This document shows, one piece after another, positions 15,745 to 48,243 of a DNA stretch of 64,000 bases. Every line of letters begins with the position of its first letter. Positions within the stretch are counted from its first letter, which is position 1. Location of the stretch: contig DAOQAL010000001.1 in assembly GCA_035353995.1 (NCBI GenBank), positions 4,020-68,019 of the forward strand, in the 5' to 3' direction. This DNA is from Minisyncoccota bacterium (GTDB lineage Bacteria; Patescibacteriota; Minisyncoccia; Phycocordibacterales; UBA9973). Under the pieces are notes generated by a model. It did no database searches. It had not been told where the DNA came from and worked only from the letters and a program-made list of their open reading frames with translations. The translations under genes and the position numbers were made by a program.

Positions 15745-16326
15745 TTACAAATGACTTTCACTAATAGCCTTATTTATCTCTGAAAGAATTTTTGTTCTCT
15801 TTTTGTCAGCTTCTAATACAAGTTTTTCATCAAAAGGAGTTTTAATTATCGTATTCAAAGAATTACTTGCACCGATATAACCTAAGTTGCTCAAAATTCT
15901 CAAAACTATTATGGCTTCAATATTTTGCAATTCATTTTTTGATTTTGATTTTTCTAAAAAAGACAAACCATTTAATAAATCATCGAATAAAGAAGAATTT
16001 GGCTCTTCACCAGCAAGTAACCTTTTTAGTAAATTTGATATGTTCGCAAAAATCATAAGTTTTTGTTTTTCTTTTTTTATTTCTTCAAGCTCTGGCGTTT
16101 TCAATGCATTTGTAATTCTCCAGTAATCTTTTCCACGTACAAAATCAATTTTTACATGAGAAAAATCTTGCAAAACGAAACGAAGTTTAGAAGAAATTTT
16201 TCTAATACCTTGAGCACTAGCATAAATCATTCCTAAGTCGCGAGTAAAAATAGCGTAGCTACGATCAGCCTCTTTAGTATTTCTACTGCTAAGTATTATA
16301 CCCTCCGTATGATAAATATGATGCAT
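15745..16326 (-). CDS. recO: DNA repair protein RecO (short form)
   Basis: N-terminal OB-fold signature TEGIILSSRNTKEADRSYAIFTRDLGMIYASAQGIRKISSKL...RGKDYWRIT matches the RecO consensus (EGIVLR..YGE.D.I..L.T...G...A.A.G.R...S). At 193 aa it lacks the Zn module. Confidence 0.6.
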   Translation of the reverse strand: MHHIYHTEGIILSSRNTKEADRSYAIFTRDLGMIYASAQGIRKISSKLRFVLQDFSHVKIDFVRGKDYWRITNALKTPELEEIKKEKQKLMIFANISNLLKRLLAGEEPNSSLFDDLLNGLSFLEKSKSKNELQNIEAIIVLRILSNLGYIGASNSLNTIIKTPFDEKLVLEADKKRTKILSEINKAISESHL

Positions 16327-19300
16327 TATTTCTCAATCTTTATTCGAAAAACAAGATTGTCGATTTTGATTTCCTCGCCTTGGTTTTCAGAAAATTTTAT
16401 TTCGGATGCCAAAACTGTTTTCTTTATATCTTTTTCAAATTTTTTAATTAATTTTTCTCCATCTTCTTGTGTCTTAATAAAGAGAACAATATTATCATTC
16501 GGTGTAAGTCCAGCCTTTTTACGCATATCTTGTACTGCTCGCACAAATTCTCTATAATTTCCTTCTTCTTTTAATTCTAGCGTTATTTCCATATCAAGTA
16601 AAACTTCTGTTTCAATATTTTTATTTTCTAGAACATCTTTTACATTTAATTCATCTTTTATAAGTTCTAAATATTTTTTATCAAGAGATAAATTTTTTAT
16701 TTCCATCTTTGCAAGAGGTTGTCTTACCGGAATTCCTCCTTTTTGTCTTTTTTCAAGTCCAATAGAAACAATTTTTCTTACATCTTCCATATTTTTTATT
16801 ATTTCTTGGTCTACTTTTTTATTTTCTGGCCAGCTTGCAAGATGTATACTTTCTTCATCTTTAAAGTTTTTTAACTTCAACCATATATCTTCGGCAGTAA
16901 ACGGAGCAAATGGAGCTATAATCTTAGATAGATTTTTTAAAACGAAGTACAAAGTCTGTCTAGCTTCACCATAATCCTTAAGAGTAATAGGCCTACTTGC
17001 TTCTTCTTTAATTCGATCACGAGAACGACGTAAATACCAAGTAGAAAGATCATTTATAAAATCACGAATTGCTCTTGTTGGCTCTAGAACTCTATAATTA
17101 TCCATATTTTCTACACAAAGAATATTTAATTCATCTAATTTAGACACAATCCACTGATCTAAAATATTTTCTGATTTTTTATATTCCAATTTTTCCAATT
17201 CAATGTCTCTATATAGTTCATAAAAAGCAAGCACATTATAAAGTAAACCAAAAACTTGTCGATGAAGTTCAACAACAGTTTTTTCATCAAAGTTTTTTGA
17301 TTCACCAGGCTGGTTTACTCCGTACATCCAAAGACGAAGAGTATCTACTCCATATTTATTAATCATTGACCATGGATCTACAACATTTCCAATAGACTTA
17401 GACATTTTTTTACCATTTGCATCCAAAAGTAAACCTAAACAAATAACATTTTTATATGCTTTACCTCGCCCCATTAATGTTCCCACAGCATGCAAAGTGT
17501 AAAACCATCCACGAGTTTGATCTATTGCTTCAGAAATAAAATCAGCCGGATATTTCAAATTTTTATTTTCAAAAAGTCCACCTTTAGCAAAATCGAATGG
17601 ATAATGATCCTGAGAAAACGGCATAGTTCCCGAATCAAGCCAAACATCCATTACTTCTTTTGTCCTTTCTAATTTTCCTCCACAAACTTGCCCTGAGCCT
17701 GTTGAATTAGAACAAATAAGTTCCGCCTCATCAATATAAGGTTTGTGTAAGTCTGGCATATAATCCTCGTCATGTGGCAGAGAAACAAATCCGAATTCTT
17801 TTATTTCTGCATTGTTTATAGAAACCAGAGGATCATGTTTGCTAGATAAATCCGAAAAAGAAAGTCCTTTCACAATAAAACTAATTGCTCGACTGGTTGA
17901 ACCTTGATGTCCTATAATTAAAATATTTTTATTATTATATTTTTTCTCAATTTCGTATAAGAATTCACCAACCCTTTTTACTAACTCCGCAAAACTTTCA
18001 CCACCAGGAAGAGATTCTTTCGGACTATCTAAGTAATCAAGGTCATAATATTTTTTAAATTCAGAGCGATCCTTTTTGTCAAAAACATTACTGGTTTCCA
18101 TCTCTTTTATACGGTCATCAAAAATTACTTTTTCAATTGGAAATCCAGTTTGTTTACAAAAGATCTCGGCTGTTTCTTTTGTACGTTCAAAAGGTGAAGA
18201 TATAATAATATCAATTTTTTCTTTGAAGTTTTTTGCACTTTCTATAACTTGCTCTTTGCCATTTTCTGTTAGTTTTGCACTATGATGTATATCTCTGGAA
18301 TTAACATTATCTTTAGCTATATTATTCATTGCTTCACCATGTCGCATAACAAAATATCTATTGCCTGATTTTTTAGTTTTTTCTTTCAAGTCAGCCACAC
18401 TGCCTATAACTTCTAATTTTCCACATTTACTGCATGTCCAAACAGGAAGTGGTGTTCCCCAATATCTCTCTCTGGAAATTGCCCAATCTTTTATTTCACG
18501 AAGCCATTCACCAAAACGTCCTTCTTTTATATGTGCTGGTTCCCAATTAATACCTTCGTTCTCTTTTACAAGTTTGTCTCTCAAAGATGACATTTTTATA
18601 TACCAAGAATCTCGTGCGTAATAAATAAGCGCAGTTTTACATCTCCAACAATGTGGATATGAGTGTTCGTATTTTTCTTTTTTTAATAAAAGTTCACGAT
18701 GTGCTAAGTCTTTTATAATATCTACAGCTACATCTTCATCACGAACAAATCTTCCTTCAAGAAAACCTGTTCCTGCTAAAAATTTTCCATCAAGACCAAC
18801 TAAATGATGTTTTGGTAAACCAATTTCTGTGCCCAGCATGAAGTCATCTTGTCCATACATTACAGCAGTATGCACAACTCCAGTTCCATCTTCAGTAGTA
18901 ACAAAACTAGCTGGATAAACTTTAAATGATTTTTCTAAATTCTCACCTTTTTTCTCAAGTTGTTCTTTCAAAAATGGATAAAGTGGTTCATATTCTAAAC
19001 CAATTAAATCTTTACCTTTAACCACATTTAATACCCTCTCCTCATGTGCCTCACCCATTAAATAAAGATCCATAAGATTTTGATTTTTAGGACCATTTTT
19101 ATCAACAACGGTATCTGGTGAAAAAATATATGAATTTCTAGTTCCATCATTTTCTGTTTTTGTAATAATCCAATATTTAACATTTTTATTTATAGCAAGC
19201 GCAACATTTCCTGGCAAAGTCCAAGGGGTAGTAGTCCATGCTATTATGTATGTATTTTCTGTTGTAGTGAAATTATCTATTTTCTGTCCAACTTTTAATT

Positions 19301-19934
19301 TAAATTTTACATAGACAGATAAATCTTTTACGTCTTGATAGCCTTGAGCAAGTTCATGGGAAGAAAGAGCTGTTCCACATCGTGGACACCATGGTACAAC
19401 TTTATAATCTTTATAAAGTAATTTTTGTTTATCTACTTCTTTTACTACATTCCAAACAGATTCAATATAATTATTGTGATATGTAACGTATGGATTTTTT
19501 TGATCAACCCAAAAACCAATTCGCTCTGTAAATTTTTCCCAAAGATCTACGTATTGCCAAACACTTTCTTTACATTTTTTATTAAATTTAGCAACTCCGT
19601 ATTCTTCAATTTCTTTTTTTGATTTTAAACCGAGTTCTTTTTCAACTTGCAATTCTACAGGCAAACCATGAGTATCCCAACCTCCTTTTCTGCGAACATA
19701 ATACCCTTTCATTGTTTTGTAACGTGGAATAACATCTTTAAAAGCTCTTGCTTCTAAATGATGAATTCCAGGTTTACCATTTGCAGTAGGTGGACCTTCG
19801 TAAAAAACGAAATCACCACTTGGTGCTTCTTTTTCTAAAGATTTTTCAAAAATTTTATTTTCTTTCCAAAATTTTAAAACTGCTTCTTCTTTTTTTGCTA
19901 TCTCACTTTTGTTTTTGTTTTCTTCTTTGTCCAT
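16326..19934 (-). CDS. ileS: Isoleucyl-tRNA synthetase with an embedded histidine-phosphatase-like domain
   Basis: Carries PPTANGKPGIHH (HIGH region), a CP1 editing region with TTPWTLP, WCPRCGTAL and WTCSKCG zinc knuckles, KMSKS (KKMSKSIGN) and an anticodon-binding C-terminus. It is 1202 aa because of an insertion of about 200 aa at residues ~525-725 (see findings). Confidence 0.9.
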   Translation of the reverse strand: MDKEENKNKSEIAKKEEAVLKFWKENKIFEKSLEKEAPSGDFVFYEGPPTANGKPGIHHLEARAFKDVIPRYKTMKGYYVRRKGGWDTHGLPVELQVEKELGLKSKKEIEEYGVAKFNKKCKESVWQYVDLWEKFTERIGFWVDQKNPYVTYHNNYIESVWNVVKEVDKQKLLYKDYKVVPWCPRCGTALSSHELAQGYQDVKDLSVYVKFKLKVGQKIDNFTTTENTYIIAWTTTPWTLPGNVALAINKNVKYWIITKTENDGTRNSYIFSPDTVVDKNGPKNQNLMDLYLMGEAHEERVLNVVKGKDLIGLEYEPLYPFLKEQLEKKGENLEKSFKVYPASFVTTEDGTGVVHTAVMYGQDDFMLGTEIGLPKHHLVGLDGKFLAGTGFLEGRFVRDEDVAVDIIKDLAHRELLLKKEKYEHSYPHCWRCKTALIYYARDSWYIKMSSLRDKLVKENEGINWEPAHIKEGRFGEWLREIKDWAISRERYWGTPLPVWTCSKCGKLEVIGSVADLKEKTKKSGNRYFVMRHGEAMNNIAKDNVNSRDIHHSAKLTENGKEQVIESAKNFKEKIDIIISSPFERTKETAEIFCKQTGFPIEKVIFDDRIKEMETSNVFDKKDRSEFKKYYDLDYLDSPKESLPGGESFAELVKRVGEFLYEIEKKYNNKNILIIGHQGSTSRAISFIVKGLSFSDLSSKHDPLVSINNAEIKEFGFVSLPHDEDYMPDLHKPYIDEAELICSNSTGSGQVCGGKLERTKEVMDVWLDSGTMPFSQDHYPFDFAKGGLFENKNLKYPADFISEAIDQTRGWFYTLHAVGTLMGRGKAYKNVICLGLLLDANGKKMSKSIGNVVDPWSMINKYGVDTLRLWMYGVNQPGESKNFDEKTVVELHRQVFGLLYNVLAFYELYRDIELEKLEYKKSENILDQWIVSKLDELNILCVENMDNYRVLEPTRAIRDFINDLSTWYLRRSRDRIKEEASRPITLKDYGEARQTLYFVLKNLSKIIAPFAPFTAEDIWLKLKNFKDEESIHLASWPENKKVDQEIIKNMEDVRKIVSIGLEKRQKGGIPVRQPLAKMEIKNLSLDKKYLELIKDELNVKDVLENKNIETEVLLDMEITLELKEEGNYREFVRAVQDMRKKAGLTPNDNIVLFIKTQEDGEKLIKKFEKDIKKTVLASEIKFSENQGEEIKIDNLVFRIKIEK

Positions 19935-19949
19935 AAAAAATATTTATTA

Positions 19950-20160
19950 TCAAATAAAAAAATCGTCCACGTACAACAATAAAAATTGTTATACAAGGAC
20001 GATTTTTTCGCTAGCGGTGAGCATAGTCGAATCGTGGTACCACCTTGTTTCTCTCCTTTACGGAGACTCAATTACAGCTATAACGGGCATACCCGCCGAG
20101 CTCTACTTGCCTTTCGGCTTTCTCCTCGGTGCTCCAGAGTGATAACTCCTTCAATGCTTT
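19950..20160 (-). promoter_or_regulatory. T-box riboswitch-like leader of ileS (Ile specifier)
   Basis: On the minus strand: promoter TTGTAA-17-TATAAT, Stem I region containing AUC-A (rc of + 20141-20143), T-box core AAGGUGGUACCACG (rc of + 20033-20046), and a terminator hairpin (+ 19964-20001) followed by a U-run directly before the ileS ATG. Confidence 0.6.
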
Positions 20161-20239
20161 AGTTTGATTATACTCACAAATTCGAGAAATTACAACAAAC
20201 ATTAACCCCCTTGCATTTTAAAAAAGAAGATGGCATACT

Positions 20240-20803
20240 CCCAAATAGAGTAACTGTTCTTTTTGCCTCAAATTCGCGACTTGAGAGATTCTCGGGAACG
20301 AGAAACCCTGTCTTTGTGCCCCACAAAAGTGGGTGGAAAGTTAGAAGAACAGTCTCCTTAATATTAGATTACCCGCAAAAAGCGGTTCAATGATGGATGC
20401 AAATTTCTGTTTTTACGAAAAATCTCGCCAACCGTACCCGGGAAAAGGGACTTATCTCGAGAAAAGCCCCTGTGTATAAGCGGTAACGGAAATGAATCAC
20501 ACACTGGAAAAACATTGCCATAAACCGAATAGGTGCACACTTTGGAATGCCAGTGTGGTCAGGTGTCAAAGCTGGACAAAATTGTGTCCAGAAAAATACG
20601 TGTCGCAGGCGCTGTCATACGGTATACCTAGTTTAGATTCAGCATTCATCCAAGCTCAATTATCCTTTCCGGTGGGAGGCGCTGAGCACGCATTACAGGC
20701 ATTACCCGGAAATTATTCTTCCCAGCCAGCCATAACCATAATGGTTCATGAAATTTCGCCGGAGAAGAGCAGAGCCGTCCCAAGTTATCGGACGGCTTTT
20801 TTT
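20240..20803 (+). ncRNA. Unassigned GC-rich structured RNA candidate (about 550 nt), with promoter TTGCAT-17-CATACT at 20211-20239 and a plus-strand intrinsic terminator at 20774-20803
   Basis: GC content is clearly above the flanking coding DNA. There are multiple local hairpins, including a GNRA-type UCUCG-GGAA-CGAGA, CCCAC-AAAAG-UGGG and CUGGACA-N6-UGUCCAG, plus a long-range complementarity 20262-20276 / 20346-20360. No credible ORF. The ending GCCGTCC-N9-GGACGGC-TTTTTTT works as a terminator only on the plus strand. Strand and identity are uncertain. Confidence 0.35.
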
Positions 20804-20821
20804 ATTTTATCTACTTCCGGG

Positions 20822-22573
20822 TTACATTTTTTCTGGAGTTTTTATACCAAGAAGCCAGAGACCATTTTTCATAGTCTGATAAAAAGATTTAACAAGTTCT
20901 AAATGATAAATAATATATTTATTATCATTTTCTAAAATTTTTGTATTTCCATAAAAAGTATTAAATGCGCTAGCAAGTTCTACAAGATAAGTAGCTATAT
21001 AATGTGGAGCAAATTCTTTATAAGAACGATTTACTATTTCTACAAATTGATAAAGCATTTTTTCTAAATCTGTAATTTCTTTTGGAATTTCTTTGCCATT
21101 TTTTAAATTAAATTCTTTGGATTTTTGAATAATTGAATTTGCACGAACAGCCGTATATTGTAAATAAGGCCCAGAATCACCCTCAAAAGAAATTGATTTT
21201 TCAAAATCAAAAATAATATCACTTCCGATTGAAGATTTTAATATGGAATATTTTAAAGATGAAACTCCAACAATTTCAGCAATATTTTCTTTTTCTATAT
21301 CAGAAAATTCTCGTTTAGAAATTTTTTCTCTAATCATATTTAACGAATCGTTAAGTAATGATTCACCAGTTACTATATTTCCTTTTCTAGATGACATCTT
21401 TCCATCTGCCAAACGCATCATACCGTGAGTAATATGTTTCATTCTCTTTTCTAAATCAGGATGCATAATAGAAATTGCTTTTTGTACAACTCTCATATAT
21501 TCAGCTTGTTCACTAGCAGTTGTTACAATAGATAAATCTAATTTTTTTCCAAATAAATTTTTCTTAAATTTAGTTAGTGTTAAACCCAATTCTTTGGCTT
21601 CGTACGTTGGTAATTGTTGAGAATTTACAAACACTCTCGTATGCAATTTTGGGTCATATTTCTCACCATGAAAAACGATAGCCCCATCAGATTCTTCAAA
21701 AATATTTCCTATATTTTTTTCCACAATCTTTTTACCGATTTCAGCCATTTCAGATTCAAAATAATATTTATCAAATTTTGTACCAAGCAATTTATATATT
21801 TCTTCAAATGCTTCTAGAGTTATTTTTCTTCCCCAATTATATATTTTATTTATTTCATCATCAGTTTTATCGTAAATTTTTTTATTTATTATATCAATTT
21901 CTTTTTTAGCATTTTCATCATTTTCGTAAGCATCATTTCCTTTTACATAAATTTCTCCTATAAAACGCGCTTTTTCTGCAATCGTTTTTTTTGTATCAGG
22001 TAAACCAAATTTTTTTAATCCATAAATAGCTTTTGCTACATGAGGACCGACATCGCCTTGATAATTTGCGCGAATCACTTCTGCTCCAGAAAATTCAACA
22101 ATTCTAGAAATTGATTCCCCTATTGCATTACTCATTAAGTGCCCAATATGAAATGGTTTAAAAGGATTTGGTTGAGTATATTCAATCATAACTTTTTTAC
22201 CTAACAATGTTTTTTCTTTTCCCCAATTCTCTTTTTGTTTTAAAATTTCTTTTACACTATAGGTAAAAAATTCTCGTGATAAATAAAAATTTATAAAACC
22301 AGGACCAGCAATTTCTATTTTTTCTATTTCTTTAATTTTATTTTTTAGTAACTCTTCAACTATTTTTACAGCAAGATCTCTTGGTGTTTTTTCTAATTGT
22401 TTTGAACAAGCAAGAGCTACATTAGTAGAATAGTCCCCATTATTAAAATTCTCTGGATGCTCAACTACAAATTCACTATCCCATTCTATTTCAAGATTTT
22501 TTAAAGCATCCCTGATTAAATTTTTTATTCGTTCTTTCATCTTATTTATGACCAGTCGTTCCAAAACCTCCAC
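20822..22573 (-). CDS. argS: Arginyl-tRNA synthetase
   Basis: Add-1 N-terminal domain, HIGH motif PFHIGHLMS, and a DALR-type anticodon-binding C-terminus ending in M. 583 aa. Confidence 0.9.
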   Translation of the reverse strand: MEVLERLVINKMKERIKNLIRDALKNLEIEWDSEFVVEHPENFNNGDYSTNVALACSKQLEKTPRDLAVKIVEELLKNKIKEIEKIEIAGPGFINFYLSREFFTYSVKEILKQKENWGKEKTLLGKKVMIEYTQPNPFKPFHIGHLMSNAIGESISRIVEFSGAEVIRANYQGDVGPHVAKAIYGLKKFGLPDTKKTIAEKARFIGEIYVKGNDAYENDENAKKEIDIINKKIYDKTDDEINKIYNWGRKITLEAFEEIYKLLGTKFDKYYFESEMAEIGKKIVEKNIGNIFEESDGAIVFHGEKYDPKLHTRVFVNSQQLPTYEAKELGLTLTKFKKNLFGKKLDLSIVTTASEQAEYMRVVQKAISIMHPDLEKRMKHITHGMMRLADGKMSSRKGNIVTGESLLNDSLNMIREKISKREFSDIEKENIAEIVGVSSLKYSILKSSIGSDIIFDFEKSISFEGDSGPYLQYTAVRANSIIQKSKEFNLKNGKEIPKEITDLEKMLYQFVEIVNRSYKEFAPHYIATYLVELASAFNTFYGNTKILENDNKYIIYHLELVKSFYQTMKNGLWLLGIKTPEKM

Positions 22574-46988: not shown

Positions 46989-47009
46989 TAATTAATTAGA
47001 CCAAATAAA

Positions 47010-47036
47010 AACCCCGCAAAACGGGGTTTTTATTTT
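47010..47036 (+). terminator. Intrinsic terminator after hppA
   Basis: AAAACCCCG-CAAAA-CGGGGTTTTTATTTTT. Confidence 0.6.
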
Positions 47037-47140
47037 TATATTTTTATGTAATAAAATATATGTCACAAACGTCATAAAAGATGTATAATAAAATATTGCA
47101 AAAGGTCAATTATCAATTTAATAATTATTATTAGTAATTT

Positions 47141-47881: not shown

Positions 47882-48145
47882 ATGTCGGAAAACAAAAAAA
47901 TTATGGAACCAGAAAAAAAATCACATGGAGCACTTATTGGCTCAATAATAATAATAGTCATTCTTATCATTGGTGGCATATATATATGGCAAAGTAAGGT
48001 AAAAGAAATACAGCTTGAAAAAGAAAAAGTAGAATTGCAATCAAAAGAGGCTGAACAAGCATATTTGAAAGAACTACAAGAGCTAGAAGAAGATGTAAAT
48101 TCAGCAAATACAAATGTAGATGTAGATGCTAATAAACTTGAATAA
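47882..48145 (+). CDS. Small single-TM protein with a coiled-coil tail
   Basis: 87 aa with a TM helix (LIGSIIIIVILIIGGIYIW), followed by a terminator. Confidence 0.4.
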   Translation: MSENKKIMEPEKKSHGALIGSIIIIVILIIGGIYIWQSKVKEIQLEKEKVELQSKEAEQAYLKELQELEEDVNSANTNVDVDANKLE

Positions 48146-48157
48146 TAGTTCAAACAA

Positions 48158-48186
48158 AAAACCCCGATTGCTCGGGGTTTTTTGTT
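48158..48186 (+). terminator. Intrinsic terminator
   Basis: AAAAAACCCCG-ATTGCT-CGGGGTTTTTTGTTTTT. Confidence 0.6.
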
Positions 48187-48243
48187 TTTATGTAAAAAAA
48201 AATTATATTTGAAAATAAACTATTTTTAGTATAAGATTTAAAA

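Follow-up and report, generated by a model that had tools for sequence, protein, structure and literature searches.

A predicted T-box riboswitch upstream of ileS in Patescibacteria that pairs an ultrashort Stem I with an intrinsic terminator

Introduction

The ultrashort Stem I form of the ileS T-box riboswitch was reportedly described in Actinobacteria by Sherwood, Grundy and Henkin in 2015. The class is described as translational (bioRxiv 10.1101/2023.02.28.530422), and a shorter Stem I is regarded as a hallmark of translational control (PMC11297988). In ultrashort T-boxes Stem II is essential, its S-turn purines clamping the codon-anticodon duplex, and an insertion in helix A2 has been noted for translational T-boxes (PMC7583486). 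The long Stem I of transcriptional T-boxes, on the other hand, is explained by kinetics: the tRNA has to be captured before the polymerase meets the terminator, and a short Stem I is tolerated only in translational switches (PMC7583486). We focus here on the leader of ileS, the gene for isoleucyl-tRNA synthetase, in a stretch of 64,000 nt from a Minisyncoccota bacterium (contig DAOQAL010000001.1 of assembly GCA_035353995.1, positions 4,020 to 68,019), which is referred to below as the window. This leader, a T-box leader 5' of ileS on the minus strand (20160-19956), is very probably a riboswitch that senses tRNAIle and controls ileS by transcription attenuation. It appears to be an ultrashort ileS T-box in its decoding and a Firmicutes T-box in its output, an atypical combination.

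The ileS leader

A preliminary description, drawn up from the letters of the window, had read this region as a transcriptional T-box attenuator with an isoleucine specifier, and the reading gains support here from a mutually exclusive terminator and antiterminator and from 11 homologous leaders with compensatory changes. The predicted identity of the leader rests on the T-box sequence itself, on a bulged antiterminator opposed by a terminator, and on a specifier cognate to the downstream gene together with the purine that follows it. The T-box core, AAGGUGGUACCACG (20046-20033), agrees at 12 of 14 positions with the consensus AGGGUGGNACCGCG as given in PMC11297988, and it is the sole exact match to AGGTGGNACCRCG within the 64 kb; once mismatches are allowed, the frequency of the 13-mer in the window lies inside chance expectation. 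The core falls within the antiterminator (20047-19994), which consists of helix A1 (CAAGG/CCUUG), a 7-nt bulge UGGUACC (20042-20036), and helix A2 (ACGAUU/AAUCGU), whose loop contains an insertion of 26 nt. The UGGU of the bulge is complementary to the tRNA 3' end ACCA. The A2 pair adjoining the bulge (20035 and 19999) is A126-U162 in leader numbering, in which position p is window coordinate 20161-p; it is A-U in 11 of the 12 members of the family described below and G-C in L033. Downstream, an imperfect hairpin followed by U7 (20008-19956) forms the predicted intrinsic terminator, whose 5' arm is made of the 3' strands of A2 and A1. This hairpin was overlooked by a generic terminator scan, apparently owing to an internal mismatch, and was found by folding.

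The specifier, AUC (Ile) with A as its 3' purine (20143-20140), sits on the 3' side of the terminal loop of Stem I, where it abuts the 3' strand of the helix. Stem I itself (20157-20131) is ultrashort. Its base is a 2-bp C-stem (GC) followed by a 3-nt bulge (AUU), after which come tandem G.A and A.G pairs, four base pairs, the hexaloop UUAUCA, and GA and GC on the returning strand, so that the signature of a kink-turn (K-turn), GC-AUU-GA...GA-GC, is present at the sequence level. The distal platform (IDTM) is missing: in the Rfam alignment 6 nt stand for 76 model positions, and neither the distal AG bulge nor the distal loop of a long Stem I, which form the interdigitated double T-loop for the tRNA elbow, is found. 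The preliminary description had spoken of a long Stem I-like hairpin; this part of it does not hold, Stem I being only 27 nt with the codon in its terminal loop. Its promoter, its AUC followed by A, its 12/14 core and its hairpin with a U-run about 20 nt 5' of the ATG were all recovered.

Between Stem I and the antiterminator lie three further elements. Stem II (20129-20096) rises from a base helix of 5 bp through an internal loop of the loop-E/S-turn type (GAGAAA/AAGUAGA) to a tip of 3 bp capped by GAAA. It is followed by a 21-nt Stem IIA/B element, CGGGUAUGCCCGUUAUAGCUG (20095-20075), which fits the IIA hairpin of the Rfam model and includes an F-box-like CCGUUA. The assignment was made by motif and by the Rfam model, and the pseudoknot is only putative, with no convincing covarying partners in seven sequences. 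Stem III (20066-20052), with 5 bp and the loop GUAAA, appears in the unconstrained minimum free energy (MFE) structure of the nascent RNA; the GAAAC that comes next holds two invariant adenines, A111 and A112.

Upstream, the sigma-70-type promoter TTGTAA-17-TATAAT (20195-20167) has 10 of 12 matches, its -10 box ending 9 nt 5' of the Stem I base. By itself such a match is at the chance level in AT-rich DNA (two sites against 2.2 expected); across the family, the best -35/-10 pair ends 7-10 nt 5' of Stem I in 10 of the 12 leaders. As a whole, the leader is matched by the T-box model RF00230 at 20163-19992, from model positions 1 to 219, with 55.3 bits (Rfam search with E-value reporting) and E-values of 2.3e-11 in a 601-nt region and 2.5e-09 in the whole window. 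It folds with z=-5.2 relative to shuffles, and its GC content is 44% against 31% for the window. No other T-box-like match was found in the 64-kb window, including the regions 5' of argS and of a class II synthetase gene. Two further Rfam matches in the window fall below threshold, ohsC_RNA at 47002-47070 on the minus strand (42.3 bits, cutoff 50) and a rimP leader at 48127-48210 on the plus strand (40 bits, cutoff 47); both have E of about 0.005 and are probably chance matches in AT-rich DNA.

The switch and its proposed mechanism

The preliminary description had envisaged an antiterminator that presents the UGGU bulge and competes with the terminator stem, and such a structure can indeed be drawn. 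When leader nucleotides 92-168 are folded freely, that is, the nascent RNA in which the 3' arm of the terminator has not yet been made, Stem III and the antiterminator form with the bulge unpaired (-21.1 kcal/mol). For the antiterminator segment (20047-19994), the free MFE structure is again A1, the UGGUACC bulge and A2. The strand AUCGUCCUUG provides the 3' sides of both A2 and A1 and is also the 5' arm of the terminator. The terminator and the antiterminator therefore exclude each other, and OFF is the default state, the terminator being about 15 kcal/mol more stable (-26.6 against -12.0 kcal/mol).

From these parts a mechanism can be proposed. Transcription would start a few nucleotides 5' of Stem I, and the AUC in the hexaloop would then pair with the GAU anticodon of tRNAIle. 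Because there is no Stem I platform to hold the tRNA elbow, the S-turn purines of Stem II are proposed to clamp the short codon-anticodon duplex, presumably as they do in the solved actinobacterial ileS T-boxes. With an uncharged tRNA, the 3' ACCA would pair with the UGGU of the bulge, the weak antiterminator would be stabilised, and RNA polymerase would read into ileS. With a charged tRNA, or with none, the stronger terminator would form and transcription would halt 21 nt 5' of the start codon. We infer tRNA binding, the Stem II clamp and termination itself from the sequence. Bacterial tRNAIle has A73 as its discriminator. The conserved frame of AUC and its purine supports tRNAIle as the ligand, and so does UGGU, which would match this A73.

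A family of related leaders

A scan of one genome per species yielded 35 relatives of the IleS protein of the window, at 44-70% identity over the best segment. All of them belong to metagenome-assembled genomes (MAGs) of the Patescibacteria, or candidate phyla radiation (CPR), under the labels Paceibacterota, Nomurabacteria, Vogelbacteria, Taylorbacteria, Parcubacteria and similar names; the earlier guess of a CPR-like genome thus proved right, the contig and these 35 relatives being of the Patescibacteria/Paceibacteria type. The sequence upstream of ileS was at hand for 30 relatives, and seven of these carry AGGTGGTACC(A/G)CG 5' of the gene. Five complete leaders were used to build a covariance model, R1, which recovers exactly those seven and the window when searched against the relatives, even at E<=1. 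As R1 finds no more, the other 23 of the 30 are taken truly to be without the element, and its distribution is patchy. In addition, a pattern scan of metagenomes, anchored on the antiterminator, gave 120 loci, most of which are ordinary T-boxes from other phyla; four (L059, L075, L078 and L146) stand 5' of a CPR-like IleS gene and match R1. The family considered here therefore has 12 leaders, all 5' of ileS: the window, seven genome relatives and four metagenome loci. AGGTGGTACC is invariant in all 12, yet the motif was a selection criterion for all 12, and the invariance of the antiterminator is in part due to the pattern used to find the members.

The predicted helices are borne out by the alignment of the family, in which standard pairs fill 96.7% of pair cells, compared with 35-50% once the partners are slid. 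Changes on both sides occur at 15 of 24 pairs, and the observed values were reached by none of 500 shuffles of the 12-member alignment. The model-guided alignment puts L075, L006 and L078 in wrong registers of Stem II and IIA, and a MAFFT alignment of the 12 leaders misaligns those that bear insertions; a recount based on anchors was made, and it confirms covariation of Stem I, Stem II and A2. The 4-bp helix of Stem I varies between GGAG/CUCU, GAGG/CCUC, GAGG/CCUU and GGGG/CCCC, the base helix of Stem II between CCGAG/CUCGG, UUGGG/CCCAA, CCAGG/CCUGG and CUGGG/CCCAG, and the pairs of A2 between U-A, G-C and A-U.

Conservation follows the parts that would contact the tRNA. The AUC is found in all 12 leaders and is followed by a purine in 11, while the first two positions of the hexaloop vary freely. 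The Stem II purines A38, G39, A40, A41 and A57 (leader numbering) are invariant, and the K-turn signature was recognised by eye in 9 of the 12, a regular expression having registered six. The IIA/B pattern CGGG-NNN-GCCCG-NNNN-AGC occurs in seven leaders. An antiterminator with its bulge forms in 11 of the 12. Every leader forms a terminator, of between -13 and -33 kcal/mol and with 4-8 U after it, whose upper stem stays paired although its sequence differs within the family. Each hairpin has its U-run, but hairpin and ATG may be separated by anything from 0 to more than 200 nt.

Comparison with described T-boxes

The nearest described type is the ultrashort ileS T-box of Actinobacteria, as known from Mycobacterium smegmatis, M. 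tuberculosis (PDB 6UFG) and Nocardia farcinica (PDB 6UFM), with which the leader was compared by their descriptions rather than by sequence alignment. Like these, it has AUC in the terminal loop of a truncated Stem I, which has a K-turn at its base and no double T-loop platform for the elbow; like theirs, its Stem II bears S-turn purines and its IIA/B element is 21 nt long. It shares with them as well Stem III, a discriminator with a UGGN bulge, an insertion atop A2, and ileS as the sole target. The third codon base, C20, lies 20 nt from the S-turn purine A40, which equals the quoted C18-A38 spacing in N. farcinica and may point to a similarly placed Stem II clamp. The differences are found in the output and in the host. 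Instead of a sequestrator of the Shine-Dalgarno sequence there is an intrinsic terminator with a U-run, and the host, a member of the Patescibacteria/CPR, makes essentially no use of Shine-Dalgarno sequences. Furthermore, some members of the family are also without IIA/B and Stem III, and the bulge-proximal end of A2 has A-U, not G.U.

With the transcriptional T-boxes of Firmicutes (RF00230; for example Bacillus subtilis tyrS, ileS and glyQS) the leader has in common the T-box 14-mer at 12 of 14 positions and the purine after the specifier, the competition of antiterminator and terminator with a default OFF state, the promoter directly 5' of Stem I, and the presence of the K-turn, Stem II, IIA/B and Stem III. 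Unlike them, it has lost about 76 positions of Stem I, among them the specifier internal loop, the AG bulge and the distal loop. It therefore fits neither class in full: the canonical family has the Stem I platform and scores above the Rfam cutoff, and the ultrashort class has a translational expression platform, none of which is true of this leader. TBDB sought the ultrashort class in Actinobacteria only. Full-text searches that combined T-box or riboswitch with Patescibacteria or candidate phyla radiation returned no report, and T-boxes in these organisms appear to be unreported so far; an earlier case of a transcriptional T-box with a short Stem I may exist elsewhere.

Evidence against the proposal and alternative explanations

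Several observations weigh against a transcriptional, tRNAIle-sensing T-box. Transcriptional T-boxes are held to need an elbow-binding platform for timely capture of the tRNA (PMC7583486), and the leader has none. A G.U wobble at the bulge-proximal position of A2 is described as the main steric sensor of the aminoacyl group (PMC7583486), and the leader has A-U there. Its RF00230 score falls short of the gathering score of 93, and a search with Rfam at gathering thresholds reported nothing in the window or in the 11 related leaders. The preliminary description had named the lack of an RF00230 hit above threshold as grounds for refutation, and taken to the letter this applies at 55.3 bits; the E-value is 2e-11, however, and the shortfall is attributed to the deletion of the distal domain, by which about 76 Stem I model positions are reduced to 6 nt. 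In a positive control with eight ileS T-boxes that have a long Stem I, five exceeded the cutoff, with 103-130 bits. The family is small (n=12), four of its members having been found by a pattern that fixes the antiterminator sequence, and the helix counts for Stem II and IIA were inflated by misplaced minimal variants in the model-guided alignment. Finally, no tRNA gene, and hence no tRNAIle with GAU and A73, turned up when ARAGORN was run on the window and on 37 related loci.

The alternative that fares best, though it is improbable, is that the leader is a translational T-box whose downstream hairpin sequesters the ribosome-binding region rather than terminating transcription. This would agree with the translational assignment of the ultrashort Stem I class (bioRxiv 10.1101/2023.02.28.530422; PMC11297988) and with the A2 insertion of the window leader, a trait of translational T-boxes, and in L033 the U-run abuts the ATG. 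There is, however, nothing for such a hairpin to mask. The ATG of ileS is preceded by GAUAAUAAAUAUUUUUUAUG, without a Shine-Dalgarno sequence, and a Shine-Dalgarno-like core at -20 to -4 was found in only 1 of the 46 open reading frames (ORFs) of at least 150 aa in the window, which is below the random background of 8.6%. As there is no Shine-Dalgarno sequence to sequester, the actinobacterial translational mechanism is not applicable to the ileS leader. Moreover, 4-8 U follow the hairpin in all 12 leaders, and the span of 0 to more than 200 nt between hairpin and ATG means that the hairpin has no conserved relation to the start codon. Hairpins followed by T-runs also occur elsewhere in the window, at 14 sites compared with 7.3 +/- 3.6 in shuffles, and intrinsic termination would be the output mechanism that the host sequence supports. 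Many genes of the window have a TATAAT-like box 7-10 nt 5' of the ATG, which suggests that leaderless mRNAs, or mRNAs with very short leaders, are widespread in the host.

Slightly less probable again is a leader derived from a T-box that no longer senses tRNA, either as a relic or as the binding site of another factor such as IleRS, with a terminator that is constitutive or otherwise regulated. The loss of the elbow platform, the loss of IIA/B and Stem III in some relatives, the change of the G.U sensor pair to A-U and the absence of the element from 23 of the 30 related genomes could all be read in this way. The tRNA-contacting parts, however, are the most conserved: there is little or no change in AUC and its A, in the S-turn purines or in the UGGUACC bulge. 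The compensatory changes in the helices argue for purifying selection on a working switch, and without antitermination the cell would not survive a constitutive terminator of -27 kcal/mol ahead of a gene that is both essential and single-copy.

If a tRNA is sensed, the hexaloop could in principle be read differently, with UCA (Ser), UAU (Tyr) or UUA (Leu) as the specifier, a reading to which we give very little credence. UCA is as well conserved as AUC, the loop being NNAUCA in 11 of the 12 leaders. The regulated gene is nevertheless ileS in all 12, AUC has the canonical 3' purine and obeys the 'C rule' at its third position, and the first two loop positions are free to vary. UGGU also predicts A73, as in tRNAIle, and bacterial tRNASer has G73, which counts against a Ser specifier. 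Lastly, a chance resemblance, a few hairpins and a fortuitous GGUGGUACC in AT-rich intergenic DNA, is effectively refuted: the promoter match and the 13-mer with mismatches are each at chance level, but not a covariance-model E of 2e-11 across the full model, the 44% GC and z=-5.2 fold in a genome of 31% GC, or 11 independent homologs at the same genomic position with covariation.

Variant architectures within the family

The 12 leaders do not all share the architecture of the window. Seven have the K-turn, 4 bp and hexaloop in Stem I, and L003 and L146 have an extra small hairpin inside the specifier loop, intermediate forms which suggest that Stem I was truncated independently of the Actinobacteria. 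In L008 (2795-2955), L022 (2638-2799) and L078 (620-810; positions here and below are those of the related loci) a three-way junction takes the place of the Stem I K-turn; in it, a 6-bp hairpin with an NNAUCN hexaloop precedes a second hairpin. Where the other leaders keep a purine after AUC, L008 has C.

The elements 3' of Stem II are more variable still. IIA/B is absent from five of the 12, namely L006 (2664-2798), L022, L075 (1043-1157), L078 and L146 (3569-3710). Stem III is absent from L006, L022 and L075, in which a purine-rich linker, AAAUGAGAAGUAAA, stands in its place, and also from L003 and L033, which do contain IIA/B. In L075, K-turn through antiterminator takes up only about 112 nt. 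In the systems studied, IIA/B and Stem III are needed for tRNA binding (PMC7583486). At the other extreme, locus L072 (2067-2356) carries a canonical long-Stem-I T-box with an AUC specifier that scores 106 bits, above the Rfam cutoff, on a contig of 50% GC. It precedes an IleS whose N-terminus is 57% identical to that of the window, and it may be a full-length relative of the CPR leaders that could help to date the truncation of Stem I.

The ileS gene and its surroundings

The gene downstream of the leader (16326-19934, minus strand) encodes a type-2-like IleRS of 1202 aa and starts with the ATG at 19934, 21 nt past the U-run. Its identity as ileS, claimed in the preliminary description, is confirmed by the NCBIfam ileS equivalog (847 bits, cutoff 621) and by the Pfam domains tRNA-synt_1 and Anticodon_1. 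An identical IleS is encoded in assembly GCA_964524305.1 (contig CAZGCM010000001.1) and in the JGI metagenome 3300009694.

The protein also contains an inserted domain of the histidine-phosphatase superfamily (Pfam His_Phos_1, E=4e-26) at residues 528-716, or 17787-18353 on the minus strand of the window. The insert sits past a zinc-knuckle-like CSKCG motif and ahead of KMSKS (residue 843), and its catalytic motifs RHGE and GHQG are intact. It is present, at 31-54% identity, in all of the approximately 37 related IleS genes examined, whether or not they have a T-box. Among solved structures the insert comes closest to phosphoserine phosphatase 1, a phosphoglycerate mutase and CobC, with E-values of only 1e-8 to 1e-5, and a full-text literature search gave no paper on a histidine-phosphatase insert of IleS.

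Between argS and the ileS promoter lies a spacer of 626 nt (20200-20825, plus strand) with 44% GC in a genome of 31%, and with no convincing ORF. Its plus strand folds with z=-5.3, compared with -2.2 for the minus strand, and it ends in a clean hairpin, GAGCCGUCCC-AAGUUAUC-GGACGGCU with U7 (about 20790-20822), that is convergent with argS. The public annotation places a 136-aa ORF at 20492-20902, which crosses this terminator into argS and looks doubtful. The spacer has no Rfam match and no similarity in the related loci, and it may be an orphan structured RNA.

Implications

It is the architecture of Stem I, more than the presence of a T-box itself, that makes the leader of interest. We would call it an evenly balanced proposition that CPR of the Paceibacteria type hold an unannotated T-box lineage which attenuates transcription co-transcriptionally without contact to the tRNA elbow, minimal forms without IIA/B and Stem III, such as L075, included. 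If true, T-boxes acting at the level of transcription would be able to do without the Stem I platform, contrary to the view that they need it, and a conserved family with an ultrashort Stem I and a terminator would be a natural counter-example to the kinetic argument for the long Stem I. The host offers a rationale for the combination, since a genome poor in Shine-Dalgarno sequences rules out the translational mechanism of the Actinobacteria. That such T-boxes have probably been missed systematically follows from the scores of all 12 leaders, which lie below the Rfam cutoff, and from the restriction of the TBDB ultrashort search to Actinobacteria.

If the minimal forms without IIA/B and Stem III work, they would be the smallest natural T-boxes, and such variants are of interest to structural and synthetic studies as compact modules for sensing tRNA. 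For the organisms themselves, the proposal would extend the T-box mechanism to the CPR: the leader is a rare putative sensory RNA in a reduced genome, and it would have the cell monitor the charging of its tRNA with isoleucine.

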